Shown here: in pieces, positions 27,207-55,348 of the stretch | Numbering within the stretch: the first letter of the stretch is position 1 | How the letters are laid out: each line of letters starts with the position of its first letter | DNA from: a virus | Lineage: Duplodnaviria > Heunggongvirae > Uroviricota > Caudoviricetes | Strand: one strand, 5' to 3' | DNA: 64,000 bases | Virus record (IMG/VR): IMGVR_UViG_3300017705_000602 | Program-made: the position numbers and the translations under genes | The notes under the pieces: generated by a model | Told to the model about the DNA's origin: nothing | Databases searched by the model: none | Seen by the model: only the letters and a program-made list of their open reading frames with translations

Positions 27207-27458
27207 ATGTTCAAGCAACATCATTACAAAGTAATAATTGCTAGTTTAGGTATCCTGGTAGCGTTGTCGGGTTGTGGCAAGCAAGAGCAGAATGACGAAA
27301 AACAAGTTGATACGCGCCCTGTACTGACAGTGACTCATTTTGTAACACCCGAAGGACTTGAGTGCGTGTCTATTAAGCCGCGCTTTAATAGCGATCCCGA
27401 AGGCATCAGTTGCAACTGGGCCGACTGGGTTTGGCGAAGAAATAACGGAAAATTATGA
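27207..27458 (+). CDS. lipoprotein
   Basis: Lipobox LSGC. Confidence 0.7.
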   Translation: MFKQHHYKVIIASLGILVALSGCGKQEQNDEKQVDTRPVLTVTHFVTPEGLECVSIKPRFNSDPEGISCNWADWVWRRNNGKL

Positions 27459-27823
27459 AACACAAAATGTATTGCATTTTCGCAAAAGAAAGTGTAAAAA
27501 AGATGAACGGTATACGCGGTAAAATGTGTACACAGGCAGGGCATGCATACGTGCATACGCTGTTACAAGCACAGCAAGACTGGCCCGAGCATGTGCAAGC
27601 ATACTTAGACAGCGGGCATGCGTACAAAATAACGCTCATTGTTGATACAGTTGCACAGTTAGAAGCATTGCAAAAGGCCTATGTCAACCAATGCGGAACA
27701 AAGCTAGTAACCGACAAAGGCTTTACTGTGTTCACTGAACCAACTACAACCTGCTTGGGCATTGGCCCAATCAGTGAAGATCTTGTTGGTGACGACTTAC
27801 AAAACTTGAAAACTTTTACGTGA
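27455..27823 (+). CDS. pth2: peptidyl-tRNA hydrolase, Pth2 family
   Basis: GKMCTQAGHA, KITL, DKGFTVF..PTTTCLGIGP. Confidence 0.85.
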   Translation: MKHKMYCIFAKESVKKMNGIRGKMCTQAGHAYVHTLLQAQQDWPEHVQAYLDSGHAYKITLIVDTVAQLEALQKAYVNQCGTKLVTDKGFTVFTEPTTTCLGIGPISEDLVGDDLQNLKTFT

Positions 27824-28235: not shown

Positions 28236-28727
28236 ATGGATTTTATATTAGGACTGATGCTTACGCCAATCTTTGTTGGCGCATTGTTTTTATTTGCGGT
28301 TATTGCCGATCATACTGAACACGAAGGCTGGGCTTCATTTATACTGCTTTCATCATTTGCAATTCTGTACCACATATTCAAAATTGATTTGGTTACAATT
28401 GCATACGGAGCCGGTGCGTGGATTGTAGCAGGTGTAGTGTACTCATTTGTTAGATGGATGTACCAGTGCAATCGGGCAGCCGGCATGTACGAAGCCAAGT
28501 CAATAGACAAATACCGAGCACTGGAAATGACTGACATTGCCAGGAACAAAGGCACAATCACATACTGGGCATTTGCTTGGCCAATAAGCTTGGTGTCCAC
28601 AGTTCTTACCGATTGCTTGTCGTGGATGGGCAAATGGTTACACTTTGCGTTTGGTAATGCATTTAGATGGGCAAGTGACAAATCACGTATGCGCATTAAC
28701 GATATTGCAAACGACAGAAACGATTGA
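28236..28727 (+). CDS. membrane protein
   Basis: Multiple TM segments; TTGACA promoter. Confidence 0.7.
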   Translation: MDFILGLMLTPIFVGALFLFAVIADHTEHEGWASFILLSSFAILYHIFKIDLVTIAYGAGAWIVAGVVYSFVRWMYQCNRAAGMYEAKSIDKYRALEMTDIARNKGTITYWAFAWPISLVSTVLTDCLSWMGKWLHFAFGNAFRWASDKSRMRINDIANDRND

Positions 28728-28818
28728 GTCCTGGGTCCAACTAGGAACGAAAGCCGCTGATCGGTTACGTTGAATTGTGCTAGACAGTTCGGAAACTTGC
28801 GGTATCTAGCAAACTTTA

Positions 28819-28886
28819 GGACAAAGGTAGTTCCTATCACGATGCTCTAAGCATCAGCCTTTTAAGCTGACCTATACTACCCGTCC
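28819..28886 (+). ncRNA. TCCTAT-family hairpin RNA carrying a tRNA-Lys(UUU)-like anticodon stem-loop
   Basis: GGAC/GTCC and GGTAGT/ACTACC stems, TCCTAT, internal TCAGC-CTTTTAA-GCTGA. Confidence 0.7.
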
Positions 28887-28909
28887 ACCCACTTTTAAAA
28901 GGTAACGAA

Positions 28910-29386
28910 ATGATGATTATTGACGGTGCGCCAGATGACGGATCAGTTACACTGCGTTTACACGAACGCAAAGGATCAAAGTTCTTTACCAGGCATAACG
29001 GTAAGTTTCATTTTAAAATCGACGGTGTTTTCATTTCTTATCGTCGCAAGGTATACAATATATCTACTCGCTCCACAGAATGGTACAACAATTCAACAGT
29101 CGGCAGACACAAAAGCAAAACCAATATCAAGTTTTGTGATATATTTGTGTCCAACGAAGAGCTTTCATTTTATGCATTGCAAAATGTATACTTTATCGAA
29201 GGCCTCACTGTCAAGAAAGCAATACCGTACGGTGTCGATACTGCTATTAAACTCGATGTTGAAGATTTATTCTCAAATCGCCCGAGCACAATAAAAACAA
29301 TCAGTGTATGGGACGGTAAAAATGCACGCGCAATCGAATTGTGCGAAAGCGGAAGATATACAACGGGCACAGTTGACACACGATAA
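28910..29386 (+). CDS. hypothetical protein
   Basis: 158-aa ORF with SD. Confidence 0.65.
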   Translation: MMIIDGAPDDGSVTLRLHERKGSKFFTRHNGKFHFKIDGVFISYRRKVYNISTRSTEWYNNSTVGRHKSKTNIKFCDIFVSNEELSFYALQNVYFIEGLTVKKAIPYGVDTAIKLDVEDLFSNRPSTIKTISVWDGKNARAIELCESGRYTTGTVDTR

Positions 29387-29424: not shown

Positions 29425-29639
29425 GGCCGCTGGCGTATTAGAAAAAAGTGTATAAAGACGTAGCTGGGTGAGTTACGGTAGAAGAAAAAACTTTAACTTT
29501 ATACATCTAAGGACGCCGAATTAGTTGGACTGAAACAGAATGCGGAATGCTTTGAGATACTTGCACACCACAAGTAGCCGGGCAGGAGGCAACTGTGGAA
29601 TAAGACGATTGCTTGGTTCGAATCCTTCAGCGGCTGCCA
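29425..29639 (+). ncRNA. 215-nt tRNA-like RNA
   Basis: GGCCGCT/AGCGGCT acceptor-like stem + G-CCA, GGTTCGAATCC T-loop, long internal helices. Confidence 0.7.
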
Positions 29640-29645
29640 AATTAC

Positions 29646-29823
29646 GGAGAGAGCTGGCTTGTTAGATTTGCAGGTTTAGCTTGCTATGCGGAGCTACACC
29701 AAGGAAAGGCTTTTAATTTGAACATGTCGACACGCTGTTTTCCTGCAAGAGTCAGTAGTAGGCACGGAATGATTTCTAGCCGGAACTTGGTAGTGGATAG
29801 TTCGAATCTGTCCCTCTCCACCA
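29646..29823 (+). ncRNA. 178-nt tRNA-like RNA
   Basis: GGAGAG/CTCTCC + A-CCA, GGATAG-TTCGAAT-CTGTCC T-arm, internal helices. Confidence 0.75.
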
Positions 29824-29829
29824 TTTTAT

Positions 29830-29954
29830 GCGGAACGATTGCACAGCAGAAACTGAGTACTAAGTTTCATTAGCTGGTTTGGTATTTAGCATGAGTTTCT
29901 TCGAATCAGCTAGCGTGAAGAAGAAATGGTAGTTCGAATCTACCGTTCCGCGCC
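29830..29954 (+). ncRNA. 125-nt tRNA-like RNA
   Basis: GCGGAAC/GTTCCGC + G-CC, GGTAG-TTCGAAT-CTACC T-arm, 12-bp internal helix. Confidence 0.75.
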
Positions 29955-29971
29955 TTTTTAAAGGAATAACA

Positions 29972-33686: not shown

Positions 33687-34004
33687 ATGAATACATATTT
33701 AAAAACTCAAGCAAAACTGCTCGCAGTGCTAATGGTCAAGGAAGTTCTTGCTAAAGGCATTGTGTCAATTGAATTCTACAAAGCCGACGACACAGTTAGG
33801 CCCATGCGTGCTACACTAGATCCGAATCTTTTGCCTGCAAGCGAAAAGAAAGATGAATACGATTCTGCAATTGATCTTAACGTTGTAAAAGTTTTCGACG
33901 TTGAAGCAACAGCATGGCGTTCATTTCGCATGGACAGACTAAAGTCAATCGACGGACTTGACTACAAATTGTACTTTAACAATTTTTTCGAGTCAGCAAT
34001 TTAA
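33687..34004 (+). CDS. WYL-like SH3-fold protein (DUF2693-like)
   Basis: FYKADDTVRPMRATL...VFDVEATAWRSFR. Confidence 0.75.
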   Translation: MNTYLKTQAKLLAVLMVKEVLAKGIVSIEFYKADDTVRPMRATLDPNLLPASEKKDEYDSAIDLNVVKVFDVEATAWRSFRMDRLKSIDGLDYKLYFNNFFESAI

Positions 34005-34075: not shown

Positions 34076-35869
34076 ATGTCATTAGTTAAATTATCACTTG
34101 CATTGTTCAACGTAGTGCCAGAAAGCACAAAACCGCCAGCAAAGTCTGCGCATGTAGACCTTGACAATGGCATAGTAATTTCAAAAGAAGCAAGATATGC
34201 TAAGGCTGATATCGTTGCGTTCCTGAAACAAAAGAAACTGTCGGGCGAAGATCTAAACAAGACATGGCACAAAACATGGGCCGAAGTCAAGTCAAGAGAA
34301 AACTCGCACGATGTTGTCCAAGCAGTCATGGGGTTCATTAACGGACTCGGTGCAAAGCTGGACAAAGAAATTCGTTTACCGAACGAAACAATCGGCATTG
34401 ATGATCTAGATTTGCGATTGCAGACTGTGGTTGCAGTGCCAGTTGATGAAATCAACGACCGTGCTTTGCAAATGTTACAATCTGGCATGGCACTAAAAAC
34501 ACAAACAATACACGATTTGTTTGAGATATTGTCTGCTACAGGTTATCAGTTTACTGGCGACGAAGATATACGCAACAAAGAAGCCGTTGTTATACTTGCT
34601 GATACTCATGGTATCTATCCAAAAGAGCCAGTTGAGGCTCTACGCTATGCAGTATACAAAGCTACCGATTCGGCCATGCTGATCAAGAGTGCGGGTGCAG
34701 TAGAAGCAATCAAGGCGTCTTCATTTGATGCAACAGATGTATTCAAAGACGTAGGCGAGACTCGAATGTCCGAAGTGTTCAATCGCTTCAAGCCATTGTT
34801 TCTTGCATTCAAAGGCAAGTCTGCTAAGTCACGTTCGTCAGTTAACCGTATTGCAAAGCTGAGCAAAACACATCACAAGCCAATGCCTGTGAATGCCTTG
34901 CAAGAAGTTACTGCTCGTAGACTGGTGGACACTGAATTACACTGGCTGTCCAATGCAACTGTGTTTGCACTGTTCAAGGCATTGTCTGCTTGTCATACAC
35001 GCATGAATGGTCGCACAGTGTTTGCATACCACATACGTAACGGTAAAGGCTGGTACAAGACAGAATCGTGCAAAGCGTCTTCGGATGACTTACAGCACAA
35101 CTTTGATCTAATAGTGAATGAACTAAAAGGTCGTGTGAACACCGAAGGTAAAAAGATCTTTATACCGGAAGGTATTGAATTTGCCCTGCCTACATCCGAA
35201 AAGATGTTTGTTGGCAATATTCCAACTGGTACCAAGTTCACATCCGATGGTATTGCCGCTGGCATATATTGGAGAAACGAATGGGGTGCAACCGATCTCG
35301 ATTTGTCTACTCTGGACGTCCGTGGTACAAAAACTGGCTGGAACTCTTTTTATACCAGCCAACACGGCGAAATTGCATACTCGGGTGATATAACCGATGC
35401 ATACAACGGCGCAGTCGAATACATGAATATTCAGTCAGGTATAACCGAACCGGTGTTGTTGCTTAACAATGTGTACTCAGGTAACGAAGATTGCGAATAC
35501 AAGGTTGTTGTGGGTCAAGGTACCGATATTACAAAATCGTACATGATGGATCCTAATAGTGTATGGGTAGAAGCAATGTCCGCATCGGTGAAACGCGAAA
35601 CCATAGTCGGATTGTTTTTACCGGAGACTGGTAACCGAGCTTCGTTTGTGATGCTTAACACTGCTATCGGCAATGCGAATGCGTCTGCAGGCAATATACA
35701 CTCTACTCAATTCAACCGTGCGTTGGTTGAGCAGTACAGCAATCAATTTTCGTTAAATGAATTGTTAGAATATGTAGGTTTTGAGTTGACACCATCGCAG
35801 GATGATGCTACAATAGACTTATCGTTAGACAACTTGGATCGTGATACATTTGTATCGTTATTCAGTTAA
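34076..35869 (+). CDS. 597-aa protein with helical N-terminus and TerD-like C-terminal domain
   Basis: GIYW...DLDLS...GWN...YSGDITDA..GAVEY resembles the TerD core. Confidence 0.6.
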   Translation: MSLVKLSLALFNVVPESTKPPAKSAHVDLDNGIVISKEARYAKADIVAFLKQKKLSGEDLNKTWHKTWAEVKSRENSHDVVQAVMGFINGLGAKLDKEIRLPNETIGIDDLDLRLQTVVAVPVDEINDRALQMLQSGMALKTQTIHDLFEILSATGYQFTGDEDIRNKEAVVILADTHGIYPKEPVEALRYAVYKATDSAMLIKSAGAVEAIKASSFDATDVFKDVGETRMSEVFNRFKPLFLAFKGKSAKSRSSVNRIAKLSKTHHKPMPVNALQEVTARRLVDTELHWLSNATVFALFKALSACHTRMNGRTVFAYHIRNGKGWYKTESCKASSDDLQHNFDLIVNELKGRVNTEGKKIFIPEGIEFALPTSEKMFVGNIPTGTKFTSDGIAAGIYWRNEWGATDLDLSTLDVRGTKTGWNSFYTSQHGEIAYSGDITDAYNGAVEYMNIQSGITEPVLLLNNVYSGNEDCEYKVVVGQGTDITKSYMMDPNSVWVEAMSASVKRETIVGLFLPETGNRASFVMLNTAIGNANASAGNIHSTQFNRALVEQYSNQFSLNELLEYVGFELTPSQDDATIDLSLDNLDRDTFVSLFS

Positions 35870-36212: not shown

Positions 36213-36464
36213 TGGGCAAAAGTGGTTCCTATAAAAAATTATTGGAAATGAATACTACTCGCCCACCCAGTTTTGACATAGAGTGTTCCTATAAAAAATC
36301 ATTCGGGCTAAAAACCCGAAACCAGCAAAATACACTCCGTCAACTATTTTTAGGCACAAGCAGTTCCTATAACATACTACGAATATATATACTGCTCGCC
36401 TACTTATTTGGGCACATAAGGTTCCTATTACAGTCTTGAAAACTACTATCATACCTTTCGCCCA
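36213..36464 (+). ncRNA. tandem array of four TCCTAT-family hairpin RNAs
   Basis: Units 36213-36265, 36273-36343, 36351-36402, 36409-36464 with covarying stems. Confidence 0.8.
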
Positions 36465-36514: not shown

Positions 36515-36751
36515 AAAGGTTGTCTCGCTTATATTTTTGGTTGATGTGTAACGTTATATACCAGTATCTCTGTAACGTTAATCAGTTTTGTAGCATCTGT
36601 AAAGCCGAATTAAGCTACTGTTACAAGAGGAGCTCCCAGGTAACAGATAATTGGCTTAAACCTGCGAGTTAGGATAGAATTAAGTTTCACGGCGTGCTCC
36701 CTGCCTAGACAGTCGCTTATACAGGCGTGATACTGTTATGAGACAACCTTT
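36515..36751 (+). ncRNA. 237-nt structured RNA
   Basis: 12-bp terminal stem AAAGGTTGTCTC/GAGACAACCTTT, nested helices, TAAATA just upstream, T-run downstream. Confidence 0.65.
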
Positions 36752-36783
36752 TTATTTTTTTGGTAATACTATACGGAGATAAA

Positions 36784-37068
36784 ATGACCATTAAACCTTT
36801 ACACGATTACGTAGTAGTCGAAGCAAAACAAAAACAAGTTTCGAAAGTTATCCATGTTGCTGGCGATAGCAAAGGTGACACAGGAACAGTTATCGCAGTT
36901 GGCCCCGGTGAGTTGTTACCATCAGGTGAACGCGGAGAGATGTCTCTTAAAGCAGGAGACGAGATTATCTTTGCAAACGATGTTATTCGTGAAGATAAAC
37001 AAGACGACGGTTCTATCCAATACTGGATGAGAATTGTTAATGTTATGGGTATCCTAAGAGAATCGTAA
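36784..37068 (+). CDS. groES: co-chaperonin GroES
   Basis: IKPLHDYVVV, GTVIAVGPG, LKAGDEIIF, VMGIL. Confidence 0.88.
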   Translation: MTIKPLHDYVVVEAKQKQVSKVIHVAGDSKGDTGTVIAVGPGELLPSGERGEMSLKAGDEIIFANDVIREDKQDDGSIQYWMRIVNVMGILRES

Positions 37069-38961: not shown

Positions 38962-39042
38962 ATCGGATTTACCCATACAGCTAAAAATCGTGCTTAGTGC
39001 TTTTGCAAGCAAGTAAAATCACTAAATACAATAAAAAACACT

Positions 39043-39387
39043 ATGGACATAAAAGACTTTACAGCACCTTACGGACAAGAAGAATTTTTATATTTTGTTT
39101 TGTCGACACCATTTTCAGTTGAGTCGGTTGTAAACCGAGTATCTCCTAATCGCCGTGTTGATATATTTTCAAGCGAAGCTTTATCGAACTGGACAATCGC
39201 CAACTGGTACTGGGCAGTCGATGGCATAGCGGTGGCATCCGAGCATATCACTGTCACTTACGCACACAACAGAATACTTAACTCCGAGCACGAGCCAAGC
39301 GGAATATACAGCATGGCACACTTTCATAAACGCTTGCCTATCTACCAATACTATCAAGAAGTACAAAGTCTTTATCAACCATTGTAA
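39043..39387 (+). CDS. LPxT-family paralog
   Basis: APYGQEEFLYFVL. Confidence 0.6.
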   Translation: MDIKDFTAPYGQEEFLYFVLSTPFSVESVVNRVSPNRRVDIFSSEALSNWTIANWYWAVDGIAVASEHITVTYAHNRILNSEHEPSGIYSMAHFHKRLPIYQYYQEVQSLYQPL

Positions 39388-39443
39388 CGCACTGTAAAGC
39401 ACGCTATAATGAAATAATACTAAACACTAACATCGAGCATTGT

Positions 39444-39785
39444 ATGTCAGCACCTCTTGTAAATTTGCCCAACAGTCGCGAGGCTTATTTATTGTATCGT
39501 TTAGAAGATAATCGGTTCAAGTCAATGGTCGCCCTTATGCGCTGGGTATATCAACGTTCAAACTACAACAATTCAAACGAAGTGGTGTTCAAACGCCTGG
39601 CTGTTTGGATCAGGAACAACTGGTCGTGGGCAGTGAAAAGTTACACATTTAATGATCGACGACTAATAATTGAATTTTCAGTTACAGGTATTGTTAGTAG
39701 TGACCAATGGGGCGTAGACCTCGATACAGTAATCGGCGAAGAAAAGCAGTTGATTGAGTTTGCGAGAAGTAAAGATGTTTTTTGA
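39444..39785 (+). CDS. LPxT-family paralog
   Basis: LPNSREAYLLYRL. Confidence 0.65.
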   Translation: MSAPLVNLPNSREAYLLYRLEDNRFKSMVALMRWVYQRSNYNNSNEVVFKRLAVWIRNNWSWAVKSYTFNDRRLIIEFSVTGIVSSDQWGVDLDTVIGEEKQLIEFARSKDVF

Positions 39786-40359
39786 TTTAACTGATGTTTC
39801 CGAGAAAATCAAAGATATCGATCATGACATCATTAAGAAAATCATGCATTCGATTAACTATCACAAACCATTCCCGGATGTTGGCAGTACAATAGATCAC
39901 ATAGTAATAAACAAAGACCGCAATGCAGTCATAATAGTTGGCGACATATACATACGCATTGAGTTTTCTCACAGTGACGTAGTTTCACTGGAGCACAAAA
40001 ATCTCTTGTTGCAATTGTACAAAGACTTTGTTGCAGTTTGTCCAAGCGTATTTCCTATTGGTCTTGCCGACAGTATGTATTGTGGATTGGTAGCAACCGA
40101 CCTCATATCTGACAAAAAGTGCAGTGTCAAATTTAGAAATTTTCACGACAGTCATATCGATATGACGCAAGCCGCTTTAAACGGCGACCAGGTCGGCTTA
40201 TTGAATGCAGAGCGTGCAATTGGAGCAATGTCGTTGATTGCTAAATCTTTGCCGGCAGTGTACATGCCTTATTATAACTTTTCATACAGAAAATACTTTA
40301 TGCGAAGAATATTTCACGGTAGATTCGGCAAGGAAAAAAGGATAATACTGAATGTATGA
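39775..40359 (+). CDS. hypothetical protein
   Basis: About 194-aa ORF. Confidence 0.65.
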   Translation: MFFDLTDVSEKIKDIDHDIIKKIMHSINYHKPFPDVGSTIDHIVINKDRNAVIIVGDIYIRIEFSHSDVVSLEHKNLLLQLYKDFVAVCPSVFPIGLADSMYCGLVATDLISDKKCSVKFRNFHDSHIDMTQAALNGDQVGLLNAERAIGAMSLIAKSLPAVYMPYYNFSYRKYFMRRIFHGRFGKEKRIILNV

Positions 40360-40717
40360 GTTACCTGAATCACTGGAAGAACTTTCGGCATTTTATTTGT
40401 CAACCGGAATGACAGTGTTCGAATACATTGACTTTCATGATATCAATGAAGAAATCAAACACACCTGGATTGCGAATAGCAAAGACTGGGCAGTAGAACA
40501 AGTCACACTAAAAGTTCTGAACATCGAACATGTGCCGGTACTGGTTATTAGATTCAAAGCGCGTGCAATAATACACAACAAGGTTATTCTTGCTTCATTT
40601 CGCACAAATTGGGCAAGAGAGATCATTTTCGAAGCGTTTGGACTAACAGGCACACAAGAAGAGATAAGACAGCAAGCAATCAATCATATTCAAGGCACAG
40701 TAATATTTGAGAATTAG
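40352..40717 (+). CDS. LPxT-family paralog
   Basis: LPESLEELSAFYL. Confidence 0.7.
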   Translation: MYELPESLEELSAFYLSTGMTVFEYIDFHDINEEIKHTWIANSKDWAVEQVTLKVLNIEHVPVLVIRFKARAIIHNKVILASFRTNWAREIIFEAFGLTGTQEEIRQQAINHIQGTVIFEN

Positions 40718-40799
40718 GTAGTATTGCAGTTTTTCTTGTGCTATAATGTTAATAATAACTTAGAATAGCGATTTTAACTAAAAAGTGGTCCTTTTAACT

Positions 40800-41156
40800 A
40801 TGCAAAAATTCTCAGGGTTCGAACTACCGGAAACGCCACAGTAACTTACTCTATTGGAATTGCAAAACCAAGAAGGAGCAAAAGAAACTGCGCTCGGAGT
40901 TTTAGCTACACTTCGTGTACAGTCACCGTATTCGAGTACAGTTCTAAAGTTGTGTAAGTGGGCAACGATTGCATCAGATAATCTTGTACCGCATGTGTAT
41001 GCATACACTGTGCATCAGCAAGGCCAACACAAACTGGTAATAAACATGTTCGGTAATATAGTAAACGTTGATATTGCAGACGACAACACCACTTTACAGC
41101 GTATTGCCAGCCAAGCAAATAACCATACTCACGATCATTTTATACTGGCCTGTTAA
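40800..41156 (+). pseudogene. LPxT-family paralog interrupted by in-frame TAA
   Basis: MQKFSGFELPETPQ*LTLLELQ; TAA at 40842-40844 replaces the conserved Glu. Confidence 0.7.
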
Positions 41157-41167
41157 GGAGTAACACA

Positions 41168-41509
41168 ATGCAAGATATATACGGAATTGTTGAGTTTCCG
41201 GTGTCGCATGAAGAATTTACAGTTGATGTACTGGGCGCTCATTTAGATGACAAGATTACTAAACTGGTACATTTTGTAGACGAACATCCGAATCTTCGCG
41301 ACACTGTGGTAATGATGTACTCAGAGTGGGTAATGGATAACATCGACACAATCAAAGAATTCGGAATGCTGTCGACCGAAAACTGTATCGAGTATATCAA
41401 TATCATTGTAGGAATCAGCGCAGAGTACTGCATAAAAATAAGCTGGCCTTGTGCAACAGCAACCGAGCAAAGGTTGTATGATTTAACGGTAGGCACAGAC
41501 AATGGTTAA
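41168..41509 (+). CDS. LPxT-family paralog
   Basis: FPVSHEEFTVDVL. Confidence 0.7.
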   Translation: MQDIYGIVEFPVSHEEFTVDVLGAHLDDKITKLVHFVDEHPNLRDTVVMMYSEWVMDNIDTIKEFGMLSTENCIEYINIIVGISAEYCIKISWPCATATEQRLYDLTVGTDNG

Positions 41510-41816
41510 ATTACCGGAATCCGAGCAAGAATTCTTGCTGTGGAAATTAGAAAAGCAGGACTACGAAGCACCTTTTTCACAGCAAGAGTTAGAATGTACA
41601 TGGCAGTGGTTGATAAGAAACCACGCTCGTTTCCAGGATCGTATGCTTTACATCCTGGAAACAGATGCAGGACTCGGCTATCAGACTTATGTTTACCTGT
41701 TTGACAATACTTGCGTCTTTTATGCATGCGATGCGGCTGTGCATCACGAATACACATTTGATCACTTCGAGCAAGCGATTGGCAAAGTGATCGAATTCGA
41801 ACACAGGTTGATTTGA
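41502..41816 (+). CDS. LPxT-family paralog
   Basis: LPESEQEFLLWKL. Confidence 0.7.
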   Translation: MVKLPESEQEFLLWKLEKQDYEAPFSQQELECTWQWLIRNHARFQDRMLYILETDAGLGYQTYVYLFDNTCVFYACDAAVHHEYTFDHFEQAIGKVIEFEHRLI

Positions 41817-41817
41817 A

Positions 41818-42150
41818 ATGATTACAATAAACGGTATCAACATACCAGAAACTCCAGAAGAAATGCTCATGGTGCATCTCGAAACATCGGGCGAGACTGG
41901 CACCATGCTGGCAGGTTTATTTTCGATAACTTCTAGAATAAGCCGGCACGAGGAATGCGAAATAATATCCAATTGGTTGTGCGAGCAGACACTTATTGAG
42001 TTCGATTACAAGTATTCCCGCTCCAACGGGAACCTACACATGAAGCCTGTGAACAGTACCCACTGGCATATTATAAGCAAAAGACACCACGACTGGTTTT
42101 ACAAACTTTCGAGTTTTGTGACTACAAAGATGACATACGAATATGTTTAA
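41818..42150 (+). CDS. LPxT-family paralog
   Basis: IPETPEEMLMVHL. Confidence 0.7.
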   Translation: MITINGINIPETPEEMLMVHLETSGETGTMLAGLFSITSRISRHEECEIISNWLCEQTLIEFDYKYSRSNGNLHMKPVNSTHWHIISKRHHDWFYKLSSFVTTKMTYEYV

Positions 42151-42487
42151 AGTTGATGCAATAAGCGAAACATACGAACTGCCGTTATCGGATCACGAAT
42201 GGACTGTGTTTATGTTACAAGGCAGTGACGATATTAATTGCCTGGTAGATACAATGGACAGTGGCGCCTTAACACCACAACAGCGCGATGCTCTTATACG
42301 TCGATTTAACACATGGGTTGCTCAGAATCTGGACAAGTTCGACGTAGACTTTAGCAAATCTGACGACACGGAACTTTGTGCAGTAATGAGATGCAAGCAG
42401 GTTCCTGATTTTCGATACCATGTTTACGACGAACCATTCGACCGAAAATTGTGGGAGTTAATTGTTCAATATGCAGACAACAAGTAA
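42143..42487 (+). CDS. LPxT-family paralog
   Basis: LPLSDHEWTVFML. Confidence 0.7.
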   Translation: MFKVDAISETYELPLSDHEWTVFMLQGSDDINCLVDTMDSGALTPQQRDALIRRFNTWVAQNLDKFDVDFSKSDDTELCAVMRCKQVPDFRYHVYDEPFDRKLWELIVQYADNK

Positions 42488-42803
42488 CACACAGAATATC
42501 GAGTTACCAGAAAGTAAGCAGGATCTATTAATGTGGGCCATGCTGTATTCTGACATAGGACGAAATTTTCAAAACTATTACTACCAGCATCACGCGCAAC
42601 GAGATACCTTGCCACGAAGTGCCGCGGTGAAAGACATTACCGAATGGATTTTCAGAGTGTGTGAATTTGCACCCGAATCAGTGGTTTTAGTTTCTGATAC
42701 CCGTCCGTTTGATGTTCTCAAGATTAACGGAATTACTATCTGCAGAATGATGCACGACACAAAAAAATACAGAGCAATAAAACGACTGCTCAAAAAAGCG
42801 TAG
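42471..42803 (+). CDS. LPxT-family paralog
   Basis: LPESKQDLLMWAM...INGITI. Confidence 0.7.
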   Translation: MQTTSNTQNIELPESKQDLLMWAMLYSDIGRNFQNYYYQHHAQRDTLPRSAAVKDITEWIFRVCEFAPESVVLVSDTRPFDVLKINGITICRMMHDTKKYRAIKRLLKKA

Positions 42804-42807
42804 CGCC

Positions 42808-43176
42808 GTGAACAGTGTTGTACTAAATAACTGCATGTATGCAAAAGACCTTCCGGTAACCGAACAAGAAGTTTCAGCTTGGGCTCTCGACTATTCACCA
42901 TCTTTTACGTGGAAAGATATAGATGACCACGAAGACATAGTGCTGAATACCAATCTCATCATCGACTGGATATGCAATGTTGTTACTATAAATTACCCGC
43001 ATCTGATCACACTAGATTTCAGAGAACATAAAGTACCACGAATAAACATTGCAGGCGTGAGAGTAGCAGGTGGCTTAATTCCGATGATACTTGTAAAGCG
43101 ACACATTGACAAACACAACGTTGATGTTCAAACTGTAGGAGAATTTAAACAAATGATAGAGCTAAAGTTTGACTAA
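42808..43176 (+). CDS. LPxT-family paralog
   Basis: LPVTEQEVSAWAL...YPHLI...IAGV. Confidence 0.7.
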   Translation: MNSVVLNNCMYAKDLPVTEQEVSAWALDYSPSFTWKDIDDHEDIVLNTNLIIDWICNVVTINYPHLITLDFREHKVPRINIAGVRVAGGLIPMILVKRHIDKHNVDVQTVGEFKQMIELKFD

Positions 43177-43513
43177 CCGATTACCAGAAACCAGAGAAGA
43201 ATACACTGCATGGTCGCTTGAGTGGAACGGAAGGTTTCGCACAACATATCAGATGTATCTTACTATAAGAACAGAAATGCTAGATGTTCTCAAGCAATGG
43301 ATTATGTTTACAGTAGAACAATACCCCGATTTGGTCACAGTTGAAAGGTCTAAGGCCGGAACAAACTACAAAGTATGGATAGCTGGTGTTGAGCTATTAC
43401 AGTTTTCGTGCCTGCAACATGCCGATTTATTTCGTGTGTTACAGGATTCCCCGGGCGTTACGCACAAGGTAAAATCTTATGCAATACAAACCAACACTAC
43501 CTTCCGATTCTAA
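43169..43513 (+). CDS. LPxT-family paralog
   Basis: LPETREEYTAWSL...YPDLV...IAGV. Confidence 0.7.
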   Translation: MTNRLPETREEYTAWSLEWNGRFRTTYQMYLTIRTEMLDVLKQWIMFTVEQYPDLVTVERSKAGTNYKVWIAGVELLQFSCLQHADLFRVLQDSPGVTHKVKSYAIQTNTTFRF

Positions 43514-43787
43514 AGAATACGCAGTGTGGATTTTAAGTGGCCGCACTGCAACCGAGTTAGTAAGCCACAATGAAGTCGACGGTTTTTGGATACTGGATAA
43601 CTTTGTTTGGTTACACGAATGTAAAGTTATTTCAAACGTCACATACGAAAACAGCGATCAGTTAGGCTGGCATGTGTCTGTTTACATTGATCACGCATAC
43701 GCCCAATACAGCATGTTTTCTGGCACTGTTTTCTCTCGTGCAGTTGAACTTGCCAGGCAATATTACCCCCACTTGTTTGCTTCGTAG
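43479..43787 (+). CDS. LPxT-family paralog
   Basis: LPSDSKEYAVWIL. Confidence 0.7.
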   Translation: MQYKPTLPSDSKEYAVWILSGRTATELVSHNEVDGFWILDNFVWLHECKVISNVTYENSDQLGWHVSVYIDHAYAQYSMFSGTVFSRAVELARQYYPHLFAS

Positions 43788-43844
43788 GTTGACGTGTGGC
43801 TTCTATGTGTTATACTTTAGTATACATACACAGGGGCACACAGC

Positions 43845-44153
43845 ATGAACCAGTTACCAAAAACAATCGAAGAAGTTACTGCATGGAAGCTCACAATTCA
43901 AGACCCAAACCAGTCTGTTGAAAAAATACTTTGCCAGGGAGTTAGCATTGATCGTATCCATTCAGTAAGATCTGCTATTATCGGTTGGGTATCATTTGTG
44001 ATAAATGAATGGCCAGGACAAGTCGAATTAAAAGAAACTTCAAGTTCTTTTAAGGTTTACTGTTTCGGCGTGTTCATGGGTTACTACGAAAGCGATGACA
44101 TCATTCGCATGCTGTGCAGATACAGCCATGTTAAGCTAGAGACAATATTTTAA
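43845..44153 (+). CDS. LPxT-family paralog
   Basis: LPKTIEEVTAWKL. Confidence 0.7.
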   Translation: MNQLPKTIEEVTAWKLTIQDPNQSVEKILCQGVSIDRIHSVRSAIIGWVSFVINEWPGQVELKETSSSFKVYCFGVFMGYYESDDIIRMLCRYSHVKLETIF

Positions 44154-44419
44154 TGTTACCAACTACCCAGCATGAGTTAAGCATGTGGTGCCTGGCACCG
44201 GAATCGGATCTCGAAAACTTTGACACATGGCTTAAAACAGAAGCGCCGAAGTTTGCCGAGCATGTGCATATTGATCAAGATCCGAACCAAAACATGTTCA
44301 AATTTTATTTGTGTGGACACTTGGTCGCTAGAATTCCTGTGAACGGAATTATCAAGTTTACACTTGCTTGTGTGCATGCCGGAACAGCCGAAGATTTCAC
44401 ATGCGATATTTCAATTTGA
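44153..44419 (+). CDS. LPxT-family paralog
   Basis: LPTTQHELSMWCL. Confidence 0.7.
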   Translation: MLPTTQHELSMWCLAPESDLENFDTWLKTEAPKFAEHVHIDQDPNQNMFKFYLCGHLVARIPVNGIIKFTLACVHAGTAEDFTCDISI

Positions 44420-44451
44420 TAAGTACGTAGTTAATCAACTACGGAGATAAA

Positions 44452-45204
44452 ATGCGAAACACAATTACCGAAACTGTTACACATGTACACCACTGGAACG
44501 ATACTCTGTTTTCGTTCCGTACCACTCGTCGGGATTCTTTTCGATTTGAGAACGGACAGTTTGTAATGATCGGTCTTGAAATTGAAGGCAAGCCTGTGAT
44601 GCGAGCATATTCTGTTGCTAGTGCAAATTGGGAACCCGAACTTGAATTCTTTTCCATTAAGGTCCCAGATGGTAAACTGACCAAGCACTTGCAAAAAATC
44701 AAAGTCGGAGACACAGTTACGCTGTCTTGTAAGCCTGCAGGAACATTAGTTGCTGGACAACTGTTACCAGGCAAAAACTTGTATTTGCTAGCAACTGGCA
44801 CAGGGCTTGCACCCTTTATGAGCATAATAAAAGATCCAGACATCTACGACCGTTTTGAAAAGGTAGTGCTGGTCCATTCTGTGCGCTACTGTTCCGAACT
44901 TGCATACCAGGATGAGATACTGAATGTGTTGCCACAGAACGAATTTATTGGCGACACAGTAAAACAAAAGCTCGAATACTTTCCTATTGTTACACGCGAA
45001 CCTTTTCATACACAACAGCGAATCACACGACTTTTGCAAGACGACCACTGGCATACAAAACCGTCGCAGGACCGATTTATGCTGTGCGGAAATGATGCAA
45101 TGCTCAAGGACACCATGCAAATACTTGATGCACAAGGATACGAAAAGGCCACGTCACGTTCACAAGGACATTATGTTATCGAGCATGCATTTGTAGAGAA
45201 ATAA
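44452..45204 (+). CDS. fpr: ferredoxin--NADP+ reductase
   Basis: RAYSVAS, GKLT, ATGTGLAPF, MLCG, AFVEK C-terminus (bacterial subclass I). Confidence 0.95.
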   Translation: MRNTITETVTHVHHWNDTLFSFRTTRRDSFRFENGQFVMIGLEIEGKPVMRAYSVASANWEPELEFFSIKVPDGKLTKHLQKIKVGDTVTLSCKPAGTLVAGQLLPGKNLYLLATGTGLAPFMSIIKDPDIYDRFEKVVLVHSVRYCSELAYQDEILNVLPQNEFIGDTVKQKLEYFPIVTREPFHTQQRITRLLQDDHWHTKPSQDRFMLCGNDAMLKDTMQILDAQGYEKATSRSQGHYVIEHAFVEK

Positions 45205-45205
45205 C

Positions 45206-45448
45206 ATGACCGTTGCTAAATTAGAATACATTCAAACAGAACAAGAACTTACAGCTTGGTCAATTGAGCACCAAGGCCAACAGTTGCCGTACCTGATTCG
45301 TGTTGCTGAACACTACGGGTTCTGTGGTGAAATAATGTCCGAATCGATATTATGGTTCAGGTATATGTTGCGAACCTTCCCTGATCATGTTCAGCACAAA
45401 GAGCACGGAATATACATTGCTGGTGTTCATTGCAGTGCGAAAACCTAG
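45206..45448 (+). CDS. LPxT-family paralog
   Basis: QTEQELTAWSI...FPDHV...IAGV. Confidence 0.7.
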   Translation: MTVAKLEYIQTEQELTAWSIEHQGQQLPYLIRVAEHYGFCGEIMSESILWFRYMLRTFPDHVQHKEHGIYIAGVHCSAKT

Positions 45449-45749
45449 TTTGGTCGAATGCATAGAAAAGGTTTATGCACACAATGCCGCAATTGATGGT
45501 GCGGCCGTGTTACACACTGCGCAAGACCTTACTGCGTTTACTATCACTTACTCGAGCTATGTTGTGCTCACATTCGGTGCAAATGAGTCAGTGACCGAAT
45601 GGTTTTTACACACACGCCAAGCATTACCCAACTCAATCGAATATCAATTCAAAGGTGCCTGTGACCATGCTTGTTATTATGTGGCATGTGTTGCAGGCAT
45701 ACCAATTATAGATTTTTCAGTATTGCATAAAACAGCATCAGTGCTATAA
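45387..45749 (+). CDS. LPxT-family paralog (start uncertain, perhaps GTG 45435)
   Basis: LHTAQDLTAFTI...LPNSI...VAGI. Confidence 0.6.
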   Translation: MFSTKSTEYTLLVFIAVRKPSLVECIEKVYAHNAAIDGAAVLHTAQDLTAFTITYSSYVVLTFGANESVTEWFLHTRQALPNSIEYQFKGACDHACYYVACVAGIPIIDFSVLHKTASVL

Positions 45750-45779
45750 TAATGTTTTATCACAAAAGATGCAATACAC

Positions 45780-46091
45780 ATGGAATCTTACACCTTTCCT
45801 GAAACCCGCGATGAAATTCTTTTGTGGGCACTTGCTACCAGTGTCCCGGTTGATTCTACCTGGTTCGACGAACATGAACTGGCAATTGGACCACATCTAA
45901 AGCTGGCAAACGACACTTTAAAGTGGATTGACTACGTGTGCGAAACTTACCCAGACTTGATCAAGTGGCGGTGGGTCGAAGGCGACGAAGACAAAATAAT
46001 ACCCCGTGTTGCTGGAATACCTATAGGCAAAATAAACATCCATCGCGAACTTGGTCAAACTGTGGTAGAAACTGCTCGGTCTAACACTTGA
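45780..46091 (+). CDS. LPxT-family paralog
   Basis: FPETRDEILLWAL...YPDLI...VAGI. Confidence 0.7.
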   Translation: MESYTFPETRDEILLWALATSVPVDSTWFDEHELAIGPHLKLANDTLKWIDYVCETYPDLIKWRWVEGDEDKIIPRVAGIPIGKINIHRELGQTVVETARSNT

Positions 46092-46144
46092 CTTCTTTTG
46101 TGCCTAGTGTATACTGATAGTATGTAGATTGCAGGAATCACAGT

Positions 46145-46372
46145 ATGAGACTAATGATATCTTTGTGCTTGTATGTTATCACAATTGCGCTGACAGGTGC
46201 TTTTGCAATGATAGCGGCAAATGCGGCACCGAACCCAAACGCACCACTGTGGATACTAATGGTGCTGATGGCTAACGTTTTGGCTTTTTGTACACTGTTT
46301 TCGGGTGCATTAAACTACCGAATGCGCATGTACGAATTGGAAGATCGTGATGATACCATTACCAAAAACTGA
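46145..46372 (+). CDS. small membrane protein
   Basis: Two TM helices, own promoter. Confidence 0.65.
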   Translation: MRLMISLCLYVITIALTGAFAMIAANAAPNPNAPLWILMVLMANVLAFCTLFSGALNYRMRMYELEDRDDTITKN

Positions 46373-46742
46373 TCTAGAGTTCACACAGTTTGCGTTACAG
46401 TACTCGGGCAAAAGCGACACAGATTGGGCGCTAATCGAAGAATACGAATACACTGACTGTGACCAAGAATGGAAACAGATACAACAAGAACTGCATCGCT
46501 GGATAGACTGGACAGTTGCCAATCGTGCAGACCTTGTGCAATATCGTATTGCTGTAAACTCGCACCTTTGGTTGAAAACAAATAATCGTTGCATGCGTAT
46601 CTGGATAGCAGACATTGCCATAGATAATCTTGTGTTTGATGAAAAGTTTTATTATCATTACAAGAACATGCCAACCAAAGCAAAATCAAAATGGGGTGCC
46701 AGGCACGATGACATTGTTGAACGTTGTCGGCGCAAAGACTAA
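46347..46742 (+). CDS. LPxT-family paralog
   Basis: LPKTDLEFTQFAL. Confidence 0.7.
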   Translation: MMIPLPKTDLEFTQFALQYSGKSDTDWALIEEYEYTDCDQEWKQIQQELHRWIDWTVANRADLVQYRIAVNSHLWLKTNNRCMRIWIADIAIDNLVFDEKFYYHYKNMPTKAKSKWGARHDDIVERCRRKD

Positions 46743-46754
46743 CAAGGAATCGCC

Positions 46755-47156
46755 ATGAACAAACTGCAAAAATACTTTCCGGCTAGCAAGCAAGATTTGC
46801 TGATGTGGAAATTGACGTTGGACATATCTTATCCTGACTGTTACTACACTTTGTTAGGAGACCACTTGTCGGAACATGGCCGCGAAGCATTCCAGCAAGA
46901 TTTTGTCAACTGGAACACCCATGCGCTCGAAGACGAGAAAGCTTTACAACGAACATGCATGCAGTGGATAGAACATGTGTGCCGGTATGCTCCGAGCACT
47001 TTGTCGTGGGCATACACAGACGACAAGCGATCAATTGTGATCATGGTTTGCGATGTGTGCATTGGCAGCATGGAGGACGACTGTAACGAACGTGACTTTG
47101 CTGTTCGTGAACAAGTGATTTTAACCGGAAGGCACTGCAAGGAGTTTGTATGGTAA
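46755..47156 (+). CDS. LPxT-family paralog
   Basis: FPASKQDLLMWKL. Confidence 0.7.
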   Translation: MNKLQKYFPASKQDLLMWKLTLDISYPDCYYTLLGDHLSEHGREAFQQDFVNWNTHALEDEKALQRTCMQWIEHVCRYAPSTLSWAYTDDKRSIVIMVCDVCIGSMEDDCNERDFAVREQVILTGRHCKEFVW

Positions 47157-47476
47157 TCGAAATACCCGACCTGCCCAGTGAATGCTGTTTGCCTTGCAAT
47201 GAACAAGACCGATTGGTTTGGGCCATGACACATGCTAATCGCACAGAATGTCAGCACATGTGGATCGCCAAGCACATGCCTAATTCAGACGTATTGGGCA
47301 CCTGGATCTTGGTAAACGAATATCTCATGAGCTGGCTGGATCTTGTGCAAGAACAATGGCCCGGTTCTATCAAGCACGACAATTACTGGTTGTTGGTCGA
47401 CGGTGTTCGCATAACATCAAGTTCGGTTGTTTCTTCGAGCTCGATAGTGCAACACATAAAACAAACAAGGGGTTAA
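47150..47476 (+). CDS. LPxT-family paralog
   Basis: LPCNEQDRLVWAM...WPGSI...VDGV. Confidence 0.7.
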   Translation: MVIEIPDLPSECCLPCNEQDRLVWAMTHANRTECQHMWIAKHMPNSDVLGTWILVNEYLMSWLDLVQEQWPGSIKHDNYWLLVDGVRITSSSVVSSSSIVQHIKQTRG

Positions 47477-47478
47477 CC

Positions 47479-47877
47479 ATGCTTCCTGACTTGCCACGCA
47501 CACGTGAAGAATTCACCCAATTGGCGCTTGTGTACAACTTTGACTTTAAAGAAAACGGCTTGTACGGACACTTGTGTACACAGCTCGCAGAACACGATGA
47601 ATTTCAACTCAGCATGTACATGGTAAGCTGGTTGTTGGAATCCGTAGAAAAATTCCCAGACTTGATCACATACCAAATAGTAGAAGATCGTTCATGTGGC
47701 GAAAAGCTGGTGCTGTATGCTGCCACAGTGTTTGTGTTTGTGTTGGTTGCTGACAAAGCTGAACACGCCTTGCAAGAACTGCAAGACAAACCCGATGCTG
47801 AACAAGCTCGCAACTGCATATATGCCATACAACGTCTGGATCATGTGGTTCGATCTTGTTGTCGCAAGCGTGATTAA
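47479..47877 (+). CDS. LPxT-family paralog
   Basis: LPRTREEFTQLAL...FPDLI. Confidence 0.7.
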   Translation: MLPDLPRTREEFTQLALVYNFDFKENGLYGHLCTQLAEHDEFQLSMYMVSWLLESVEKFPDLITYQIVEDRSCGEKLVLYAATVFVFVLVADKAEHALQELQDKPDAEQARNCIYAIQRLDHVVRSCCRKRD

Positions 47878-47878
47878 C

Positions 47879-48181
47879 ATGAAGCTGAGTGATTGGGTAC
47901 ACATGCCCACAAACTCGCAAGAAGTCACACAGTTTGCGATGGCGCACAGTGGACATTACAGCTTGTGTTTGCACATTGCACAATTGGCAACTGCGGCAAC
48001 ACCCATACAAGATCGAAACCGGTGGACCATGTTGCGCATGATCGCGCAGGCACATCTGGCCTTGCAACAATGGCAACAGCACACACCATTGCAACAGTAC
48101 GTGCAACGCACCACAACCCAAGTTGTGTTTGCAGGTGTTGTGTTATACCCAATACCACAAAGGAGAACTCGTGATGTATAA
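47879..48181 (+). CDS. LPxT-family paralog
   Basis: MPTNSQEVTQFAM...FAGV. Confidence 0.7.
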   Translation: MKLSDWVHMPTNSQEVTQFAMAHSGHYSLCLHIAQLATAATPIQDRNRWTMLRMIAQAHLALQQWQQHTPLQQYVQRTTTQVVFAGVVLYPIPQRRTRDV

Positions 48182-48470
48182 CTTGCCCACAACTGATCTT
48201 GAATTCACACAGTTTGCGATGGAGCACAGTGGACACTCACAGTCGTTTTATGCGCGTGTGCTGGATCGTGCAGTGCCTGTAGACAAAATGAAAGTGCGTG
48301 CATGGGTAAAACAAACATGCCGAGACAGACCCAAACAGTGCCGAACACAGCCAGTTGTGCGTCGAGAGCGCACTTGCACTGAGTTGTACATAGCCGGCGT
48401 CCTGATCTTGACTTCCAATCACGAACGCACAGTGCAACAGTTTGCTGACTGGGAAAAGCTTGATGCATAA
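48174..48470 (+). CDS. LPxT-family paralog
   Basis: LPTTDLEFTQFAM...IAGV. Confidence 0.7.
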   Translation: MYNLPTTDLEFTQFAMEHSGHSQSFYARVLDRAVPVDKMKVRAWVKQTCRDRPKQCRTQPVVRRERTCTELYIAGVLILTSNHERTVQQFADWEKLDA

Positions 48471-48813
48471 ACCAGACCCATTGCCGCGCACACGTGAAGA
48501 ATTTATGGTGTGGTACTTGCAACATCATGACTGGCACCGGCGCTCCACCATCGCAGAAGAGTCTTGGGGTACCTGGTACAAGAACGAAACAGTGTGTTAC
48601 CAACTGCAATGCACACGCGAACACATCATGCACATGAGCTTTCGAGAACATGAAGCAGTCGACAGCGTGCTCACGACGGTCAACCATGCAATCAAGTCAT
48701 GGCTTGCCCACACACAACAACACTTTCCTGACCTGGTTGAATCAGAACACACCGGTTGCGTTGAACACACTCGTTTCATGGGCATCACAGTGTACAGCAG
48801 TATAGTGTTATGA
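48463..48813 (+). CDS. LPxT-family paralog
   Basis: LPRTREEFMVWYL...FPDLV. Confidence 0.7.
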   Translation: MHKPDPLPRTREEFMVWYLQHHDWHRRSTIAEESWGTWYKNETVCYQLQCTREHIMHMSFREHEAVDSVLTTVNHAIKSWLAHTQQHFPDLVESEHTGCVEHTRFMGITVYSSIVL

Positions 48814-49094
48814 AGTTGCCCGACTTGCCTCACACACGTGAACAATGCACACAGTTTGCATTAACATACAGCGGCCTTGCGCTGCCTGTGTTCAACCATT
48901 TTCTTGAACAGTTTGCACATCTGCGTCACGATCCTGACTGCAATGCACGCGCAATCCGGCGTCACATAAATGTGTGGCTGATGCAGATTGAACATGAACT
49001 TCCCGACTTGTTGTACACAGACACAGACACCATAGAATCCGCTCGCTTGATACGTGTGGCCGGCGTCACTGTGTTCTCCAGTTACCGAACCTGA
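48810..49094 (+). CDS. LPxT-family paralog
   Basis: LPHTREQCTQFAL...LPDLL...VAGV. Confidence 0.7.
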   Translation: MKLPDLPHTREQCTQFALTYSGLALPVFNHFLEQFAHLRHDPDCNARAIRRHINVWLMQIEHELPDLLYTDTDTIESARLIRVAGVTVFSSYRT

Positions 49095-49109
49095 CAGCGG
49101 TATCACGTC

Positions 49110-49406
49110 TTGAAGTTGCCACACACAGCACCGGAGTTCACACTGTTCGCATTAACATACAGTAACAGCAACGAACCCTGGATCAACCTGGTGTACAACC
49201 GCCCCAGATCACGCACAACCGATCGAGGCACTTATCTGGGCATTGCATTAGCATACCAATACACTGCAATCATGCCCGAACTTGTCCGCTGGCTTGAACA
49301 CGTAGAACACAACTTTCCTGACTTACTGCGCACAGACAACTGCGATCTTGAACGAGCACTGTATATTGCAGTAGCAGGTGTTTGCATATACGACAGTCGT
49401 CCTTGA
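49110..49406 (+). CDS. LPxT-family paralog
   Basis: LPHTAPEFTLFAL...FPDLL...VAGV. Confidence 0.7.
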   Translation: MKLPHTAPEFTLFALTYSNSNEPWINLVYNRPRSRTTDRGTYLGIALAYQYTAIMPELVRWLEHVEHNFPDLLRTDNCDLERALYIAVAGVCIYDSRP

Positions 49407-51021: not shown

Positions 51022-51025
51022 CCCC

Positions 51026-51190
51026 TGTGGATAAAGTTATCCACACCCTGTGGAAAAGCTGTGGATATCATTGTGGATAAGCTGTGGATAACTTTATTCA
51101 CACCCTGTGGATAACGGTGTGGAAAACCTGTGGATAACCTTGGGGTCAGGGCTGTGGATAAGGCTGTGGATAAGTCAAAAGTTATCCACA
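51026..51190. promoter_or_regulatory. dense DnaA-box cluster (oriC-like)
   Basis: Nine perfect TTATCCACA (either strand) plus four one-mismatch boxes in 165 bp. Confidence 0.92.
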
Positions 51191-51294: not shown

Positions 51295-51493
51295 AGAAAA
51301 AATGCAAAAAAAAGATAAAAAAATTCTGAATTAATGGGTTGACTTCGGTAATGGGATTTCGTACTATACACACACGCACATAAACATATAAATGTGTCAC
51401 CCAAAATAAATGCAAAAAAGATACACAAACAGGTAGACACAAGAATCCAAAACCGTTATTATGTACGCAACAGTTAGGAAATAGGAGAGCAAC

Positions 51494-52291: not shown

Positions 52292-52366
52292 AACTCCAAA
52301 AAGTGGTAGACATCATCTACCACTTGCTCTATACTGTACACACAGTTAGGAAATAGGAGCAACACA

Positions 52367-52564
52367 ATGTCACTAGTAAACGAGATCAAAGCTTTTTGCG
52401 TGGACAATTACGAAGCCGGTTATGACGCTTGCGTAGAGTGCTGGGACACTGCAGATTACGAAGAGTGGATACGCGATTACAAAATTACTTCAGTAGAAGG
52501 TTTTGCCAAGTCGTATCAGTTCATGATTGATCATGCAAACGATATTCGTTCCACAGCATTTTAA
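52367..52564 (+). CDS. hypothetical cassette protein
   Basis: Follows leader module. Confidence 0.75.
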   Translation: MSLVNEIKAFCVDNYEAGYDACVECWDTADYEEWIRDYKITSVEGFAKSYQFMIDHANDIRSTAF

Positions 52565-55328: not shown

Positions 55329-55348
55329 CCCTCTCCTAACTGTGAGGT

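Follow-up and report, generated by a model that had tools for sequence, protein, structure and literature searches.

A predicted 68-nt RNA at positions 28819-28886 (+) of a 64,000-nt phage sequence (the window, meaning the whole stretch analysed) belongs to a family of scaffolded small RNAs that is uncatalogued and Y-RNA-like, has a protein partner different from that of the Y RNAs, and is present in phages and Bacteroidota. This RNA, copy 5 of the scaffold in the window, carries an arm shaped like the anticodon arm of tRNA-Lys(UUU), and the arm is very probably a selected anticodon mimic. The window comes from a large phage-like genome whose AAA ATPase is closest to those of Pseudomonas PA5oct-like phages (47%); no DNA-level relative of the window was found among annotated phages, and matching sequence was found in marine metagenomes. 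The features are listed with the evidence on which each rests.

28819..28886 (+): copy 5 of the scaffolded small-RNA family, two-hairpin subtype, a predicted 68-nt RNA (sequence, fold, covariance model, 67/68 bases in L213/L211)
28819..28837 (+): 5' strand of the handle, with P1 GGAC, AAA loop, P2 GGUAGU and the conserved UCCUAU (family-wide covariation)
28841..28855 (+): hairpin 1, GAUGC-UCUAA-GCAUC (stem covaries, loop varies; 2-nt overlap with the anticodon arm)
28854..28870 (+): tRNA-Lys(UUU)-like anticodon arm, loop 28859-28865, UUU 28861-28863 (loop and stem searches, alignment)
28876..28886 (+): 3' strand of the handle, with P2 ACUACC, bulged C and P1 GUCC (fold, covariation)
34076..35869 (+): predicted partner protein of 597 aa, with a TerD fold at the C terminus and a helical domain without recognised fold at the N terminus (co-location, predicted fold)
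36214..36264 (+): array unit 1, loop with UUGGAAA (covariance model, fold)
36274..36342 (+): array unit 2, 6-bp stem, 7-nt loop CUAAAAA (insert arm scan, fold)
36352..36401 (+): array unit 3, weak stem, loop CUACGAA, Arg ACG-like (insert arm scan, fold)
36410..36463 (+): array unit 4, 3-bp stem, loop CUUGAAA, Ser UGA-like (insert arm scan, fold)

Copy 5 and its surroundings

Copy 5 stands between a stop codon at 28727 and a start codon at 28910, and begins 7,395 nt before array unit 1 (36214). A long stem interrupted by an asymmetric loop joins its two ends, as in Y RNAs: GGAC (28819-28822) pairs with GTCC (28883-28886) to form P1, with the AAA loop on the 5' side, and GGTAGT (28826-28831) pairs with ACTACC (28876-28881) to form P2, followed by a bulged C at 28882, while TCCTAT occupies 28832-28837. 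The fold has a z of -3.6. A reading made earlier from the sequence alone had described this segment as a fifth scaffold copy away from the array, and its coordinates agree with ours. A covariance model, the alignment of which includes copy 5 itself, recovers all five units of the window (E 1e-19 to 1e-3) and nothing further below E 0.069. The word GTTCCTAT occurs five times in the window, each time within one of the five units, where 1.39 occurrences are expected. Contigs of three runs (X4, X6, X9) cover copy 5 without difference, thus excluding an assembly error, and no strain variants in the Lys loop were found in these three runs. Over 28500-29200 run X20 yielded no contig, nor did X8 over 28600-29100, which is uninformative as to expression, and no RNA dataset was listed among those containing the sequence. 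The ACCCA reported directly after copy 5 is there as described, and was rejected as a CCA end because it is not conserved (ACCTA in L213).

The arm, TCAGC-CTTTTAA-GCTGA at 28854-28870, has a loop that reads C32 U33 UUU A37 A38. It had been presented as a perfect 5-bp stem with a 7-nt loop, which the sequence allows, but the bases TC at 28854-28855 are common to hairpin 1 and the arm, and since the two hairpins compete for them, stability is predicted only for the three arm pairs nearest the loop (RNAfold pair probabilities, from the loop outward, of 0.88, 0.91, 0.72, 0.20 and 0.09). Hairpin 1 itself had been read as GATG-CTCTAAG-CATC with a 7-nt CUA loop, a description that does not hold, as the C and G of CTCTAAG pair and leave 5 or 3 nt and the loop is not conserved; the corresponding amber or pyrrolysine (CUA) interpretation was rejected on the same grounds, the loops differing among relatives. 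Hairpin 1 would occupy the position of a D arm. No cloverleaf with D and T loops and an acceptor end was found in copy 5 by ARAGORN or Rfam, Rfam gives copy 5 no family, and YrlA (RF02553) has no match in the window.

Several other elements lie in the window. Directly before copy 5, a structured element (28727-28812, +) that is kept in L213 and G001 has a varying hairpin and then GAAAC; it has no Rfam match and an MFE z of only -1.1, and a hammerhead reading was rejected by eye because no CUGANGA stands beside stem II. Three tandem tRNA-like elements of ~126-178 nt (29513-29955, +) have T arms (GTTCGAATC) and expanded middles, with paired acceptor stems in two of them; they lack the TTCCTAT handle, are missed by both ARAGORN and Rfam, and are 68% conserved in L211 with compensatory changes in the T stem. 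A non-coding element of ~240 nt after the array (36515-36755, +), with a long terminal stem and no Rfam match, is conserved in G001/L027 (12390-12630). Genes near the copies encode a PTH2 peptidyl-tRNA hydrolase (27455-27823), a WYL_2 protein (33687-34004) and GroES (36760-37068). Further along, 39000-49400 is a run of short paralogous ORFs with an initial 'LP-T/S-xxE' motif, and 51425-63674 holds ~20 promoter-like repeats (…TATTATGTACACACAGTTAGGAAATAGGAG), each before a short gene. The repeats TGTGGATAA / TTATCCACA that cluster at 51025-51141 are ones we take to resemble DnaA boxes, and the cluster is a possible origin or DnaA-titrating site.

The family and its protein partner

The scaffold, a handle resembling that of Y RNAs, goes together with one particular family of protein genes, which also lies in bacterial RNA-repair neighbourhoods, a connection absent from the sequence-only reading. 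Scanning viral contigs with the pattern alone yielded 26 loci; 21 were dropped as chance matches, leaving five with fully paired units (L002, L007, L016, L017 and L021). In L002, L017 and L021 the units stand directly before a homolog of the 597-aa ORF of the window; L007 carries the same units as L002, and L016 has a lone unit and no partner-gene homolog among its ORFs. Around homologs of the 597-aa ORF, a sense-strand scaffold was found near the partner gene in 71 of the best 79 of 110 viral candidates and 76 of the best 80 of 203 bacterial ones, as against opposite-strand scaffolds in 7 and 5 of these respectively; as Chryseobacterium and other Bacteroidota make up most of the bacterial set, its counts cannot be taken as independent events. 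The majority of units sit immediately upstream of the partner gene, with downstream units in the window, G001, L069, L080 and L086 and units inside tRNA arrays in L232, L301 and L309. At least three tRNA genes occur within 5 kb in 27 of the 79 viral loci (best 79 of 110). When units were defined by fixed letters only, the seven variable handle pairs were paired in 84-98% of 160 distinct stem sets, compared with 47-82% after shuffling, and the excess of G-U over A-C cells (61 vs 19) favours this strand as the RNA.

Three further observations concern units near the partner gene. Units of a variant type, having GGU/ACU in P1, often occupy the final position ahead of the partner start codon (L045, L050, L056, L122 and others). 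The CACTTTTAAAA tail of copy 5 also follows the last units in L021, L028, L050 and L056, which hints that copy 5 formerly stood before a partner gene. GOLLD-like RNAs adjoin the partner gene in L191 (1620-2099) and L139 (5439-5916), at 136 bits against a cut-off of 150.

The AlphaFold2 model of the 597-aa protein has a pLDDT of 86.8, and residues 389-550 of this predicted model match TerD (Z 10.3, rmsd 3.6, 141 aligned; Foldseek E 5e-5), so the C-terminal domain has a TerD fold where Ro60 has a vWA domain. The protein has no Pfam family; ESM Atlas returned just a viral cluster without a name (0.85), and NCBIfam gave a weak partial match to NF041916 in two of four proteins, far under the cut-off. 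Homology of the partner to Ro60 was unsupported by Pfam, PDB sequence search, hhalign, Foldseek and VIA-align. TROVE was absent among the families listed for 53 partner homologs at E<=1, and hhalign against 14 TROVE proteins, from which only a shallow profile could be built, gave probabilities of 0.7% and 0.2%. Ro60 is not among the fold lists for the whole and N-terminal models (best N-terminal Z 5.7), an absence that does not exclude homology. The invariant basic residues R190, R237, K239, H267 and R321 would suit RNA binding, and by analogy with Y RNAs the copy 5 RNA is probably bound by this protein.

Among 22 bacterial loci picked for variety from the 80 (best 80 of 203), neighbouring genes encode RtcB (9), PNKP ligase (1), T4 Rnl1-like ligase (2), RlaP (4), RF-1-domain proteins (3) and WYL proteins (4). 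Because bacteria carry the system beside RtcB and other repair genes, the family is not phage counter-defence alone. Mutual exclusion of the partner and Ro60 was not seen, a TROVE match being found also in 21 of 40 genomes; GTTCCTA is present in only 2 of 15 loci of this kind.

The family resembles the Y RNA/Ro60 pair in layout but is not a member of it. YrlA (RF02553), YrlB and Yrn1, which occur with Ro60/Rsr, likewise have a stem formed by their 5' and 3' ends, an asymmetric loop and several copies per locus, and, as the available text of the sources describes them, adjoin one same-strand protein gene near RtcB and consist of two modules, a handle and an effector part, with YUAY after the 5' strand (PMC4201824; bioRxiv 10.1101/312249). 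The Y RNA stem binds Ro60 and the second module an effector (same sources); YrlA is a substrate of tRNA enzymes (PMC4201824), and Rsr/Y RNAs have been proposed as RtcB cofactors (bioRxiv 10.1101/312249). Some family members share the T arm, closed acceptor stem and D arm of YrlA, whereas YrlA has no anticodon loop and copy 5 has an anticodon loop and no T or D loop. We know of no effector for YrlA. The 5' motif of the family is GRC-AWA-R, while that of Y RNAs and YrlA is GNCGAAN0-1G, which is absent from copy 5 (GACAAAG); the base after the motif C is A in 272 of 279 units, a position at which the collecting scan favoured A/T. The Ro60 partner has vWA and TROVE domains, in contrast to a TerD fold and no detectable TROVE in the family partner. 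As it differs in both motif and partner, we do not count the family as part of the Y RNA/Ro60 system. The literature searched holds no account of the RNA family or of scaffolded anticodon decoys; the architecture of the partner is perhaps included in surveys of Ter systems or in the supplements of PMC4201824 and PMC7824862.

Anticodon arms on the scaffold

The inserts carried by the handle are often parts of tRNAs. In L002, L017, L029 and L058 they have a T arm, a closed acceptor stem and a D arm as in YrlA, and the Rfam YrlA model (RF02553) scores 28-41 bits on L017, L029 and L058, below its cut-off of 69. In 59 of 159 loci (best 79 of 110 viral and 80 of 203 bacterial) a member was found to be an ordinary tRNA body into which the handle is set behind the D arm, so that inserts can be inherited tRNA remnants; permuted members exist as well. 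Rfam scores the tRNA-bodied members at L122 2704-2813, L139 2582-2694, L191 2487-2599, L207 3865-3983 and others as long tRNAs.

Earlier proposed from copy 5, mimicry of anticodon arms is supported by the inserts of the family. Of 252 distinct inserts, 23 contain a hairpin with a CT-NNN-A[AC] loop, where 1.95 are expected (about 12-fold; 300 dinucleotide shuffles, maximum 6), those with 5-bp stems number 8 against 0.22 expected, and three control loop patterns gave 0, 1 and 0. Several anticodons recur (Ser UGA 5, Asn GUU 4, Lys UUU 3, Asp GUC 2), and others are seen once (Lys CUU, Tyr GUA, Ile GAU, Cys GCA, Arg ACG), along with non-standard triplets. Such an arm is present in 21 of the 158 inserts from viruses and in 2 of the 94 from bacteria. 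Four of the five window copies have a CT-NNN-A[AC] loop, and the array loops differ between the window and its relative G001.

The identification of CUUUUAA as the tRNA-Lys(UUU) anticodon loop is upheld by the Lys(ttt) tRNA genes of the fetched loci, all 13 of which carry it. There are 22 CTTTTAA heptamers on the two strands of the window, and only the one at 28854-28870 is closed by a stem of at least 3 bp; generic CT-NNN-A[AC] arms with 5-bp stems number seven on both strands of the 64 kb, two of them in scaffold units. Loop and stem were then compared in two kinds of search, the loci of which are not phylogenetically independent. A loop-blind search of metagenomes (handle and TCAG..CTGA fixed, loop free) gave 21 loci, one of which, at a contig end, could not be scored; 12 are full scaffold units and 9 were dropped as chance. 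CTTTTAA is present in 9 of the 12 (5 distinct inserts), although the search pattern, modelled on the stems of the window, L050 and L056, is biased towards relatives of these. The other three units have CTCTTAA, CTGTTAA and TTGCTAA, two of them being loci from which the pattern was drawn, and hairpin 1 varies in both stem and loop among the 12. A loop-blind search of viral contigs gave eight loci, three of which are scaffold units already in the set and five of which were dropped as chance. In the stem-blind viral search (loop fixed, stem free), 10 of 90 loci are full scaffold units; a stem of 3-6 bp closes the loop in 9 of these 10, compared with a stem of at least 3 bp in 8 of the 80 other matches. 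The partner genes adjoining the stem-blind units in L259/L296, L273 and L287 are only ~29% identical to that of the window.

In 16 selected aligned units 94.9% of cells are paired, with two-sided change at four of the five arm pairs; the comparison of pairing probabilities leaves out the rows of L225, L259, L273 and L287, for which a different unit of the locus was folded. In the contrast of loop with stems that the sequence-only reading had named as a possible refutation, the outcome is favourable to mimicry: CTTTTAA is kept while the stems covary, and the Lys loop is apparently under selection. The syntenic phage L211/L213 retains 67 of 68 copy 5 bases at the same site, beside an upstream gene that is 69% identical in DNA; in L213 the inner arm pair is weak (probability 0.26) because hairpin 1 competes. 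G001, with a partner gene 63% identical and a three-unit array, has no copy at the site syntenic with copy 5, where it keeps a 41-nt upstream element, so the copy is dispensable there. Non-canonical loops on the copy 5 frame occur in L139 and L045.

Possible readers of the Lys arm

The sequence-only reading had named PrrC and the PARIS nuclease AriB as targets, and the two fare differently. Lys(UUU) and Asn(GUU), both among the commonest family arms, are AriB targets, but the one E. coli enzyme characterised cuts at U36AAUC|A41, needs U39 and distal contacts, loses cleavage with U39A and also contacts the D loop (PMC12409363, available text). Copy 5 reads U36AAGCU, with G39 and no D loop, and on this sequence AriB is an unlikely target. 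For PrrC, isolated stem-loops of tRNA-Lys can serve as substrates, with the modifications of the wobble base (U34) and A37 taken as cues (PMC1950546, available text), modifications that the 68-nt RNA may lack. With the arms phage-enriched, varied and canonical-looped, a PrrC-type nuclease is the candidate we rank first, and a possible reader of copy 5.

Two phage systems offer partial parallels, as far as the available text of their sources goes. Thermus phage phiLo also combines a protein with several short Y-like RNAs (Yrl1/Yrl2) without a tRNA body, a system proposed to act on a host enzyme; unlike copy 5, these RNAs have a canonical Ro60, the CGAA motif and a host partner, PNPase, and the word 'anticodon' is absent from the main text (PMC12135203). 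T5 tRNA-Lys, like copy 5, is a phage RNA with a Lys(UUU) anticodon arm in a tRNA conflict, that with PARIS; it is however a full decoding tRNA altered to evade cleavage (PMC12409363, PMC10264068), whereas copy 5 retains the canonical loop and can neither be charged nor take part in decoding.

We suggest that copy 5 would probably be transcribed within its operon from a sigma-70-like site at 28178 and be released as a ~68-nt RNA. Its handle likely docks on the phage TerD-fold protein (34076-35869), by analogy with Y RNA and Ro60, and the insert, shaped like the tRNA-Lys(UUU) anticodon arm, likely engages a protein that reads the Lys loop. This reader may be a host anticodon nuclease of the PrrC kind, to which the arm would be displayed as bait so that the real tRNA-Lys is spared. 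Taken as a whole, a handle on the TerD-fold protein with a Lys arm as bait for a PrrC-type nuclease is the best explanation we can offer, and a tentative one; nuclease bait as the role of copy 5 is likewise put forward with reserve. More speculative, and somewhat doubtful, is the extension to the family, in which phages would use a non-Ro60 RNP platform to show a changeable library of bare anticodon arms, a sponge against tRNA-cutting immunity, with copy 5 as the Lys(UUU) member in a separate operon and the displayed anticodons mapping the tRNAs that hosts attack.

The main rival to the bait, unlikely as we judge it, is a repair tether or damage sentinel, in which the protein-bound arm would recruit an RNA ligase (RtcB, Rnl1/PNK) or, once cut, signal damage to tRNAs to a regulator, for instance one of the neighbouring WYL-domain proteins. 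It draws on the repair and WYL genes counted above at the 22 bacterial loci, on the WYL_2 gene that immediately precedes the partner gene in the window, and on the proposed role of Rsr/Y RNA as RtcB cofactors (bioRxiv 10.1101/312249); against it, anticodon arms are commoner in viral than in bacterial inserts, and no ligase was found among 45 scanned ORFs of the window, which covers part of the genome. A conserved loop on varied stems would suit any anticodon reader, and YrlA is a substrate of tRNA enzymes (PMC4201824), so that the arm could also tune host translation by tethering or titrating a protein that reads the Lys anticodon and is not a nuclease (lysyl-tRNA synthetase, t6A or s2U enzymes). 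Such a reader gives no reason for the fast anticodon turnover seen between the arrays of the window and G001, and this role is quite improbable. Most synthetases and modification enzymes need the whole tRNA body, which also counts against it.

The remaining explanations give the loop no reader. If it were a remnant of a tRNA ancestral to the family, only the handle and two generic hairpins would matter; tRNA-bodied and permuted members exist, other loops sit on the same frame (3 of the 12 loop-blind loci, L139 and L045) and CTTTTAA is a common AT-rich word. Yet the loop is kept across partner genes ~29% identical while stems change, 67 of 68 bases are kept beside a gene 69% identical, and the replacement loops are mostly other real anticodon loops, which makes a remnant improbable. 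Least probable, and hardly to be expected, is an action in cis, with copy 5 serving the gene at 28910 as leader or processing signal and units elsewhere acting as sites of autoregulation in the partner mRNA. Copy 5 does end 23 nt before an ATG and the majority of units directly precede the partner gene, but units also occur downstream of it, within tRNA arrays and as tRNA-bodied genes, and a leader does not need an anticodon loop.

If the arm does serve as nuclease bait, it would constitute a third phage route against tRNA-cutting defences, besides repair enzymes and resistant tRNAs. This locus contributes a test of the Lys arm from both sides, loop and stem, as well as a dispersed copy that a syntenic phage retains, and with a conserved Lys loop on an RNA of 68 nt the question of the Y-RNA-type effector becomes testable. 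Even if the role should be one in repair, this is an uncatalogued Y-RNA-like family in which the effector module is legible from sequence.
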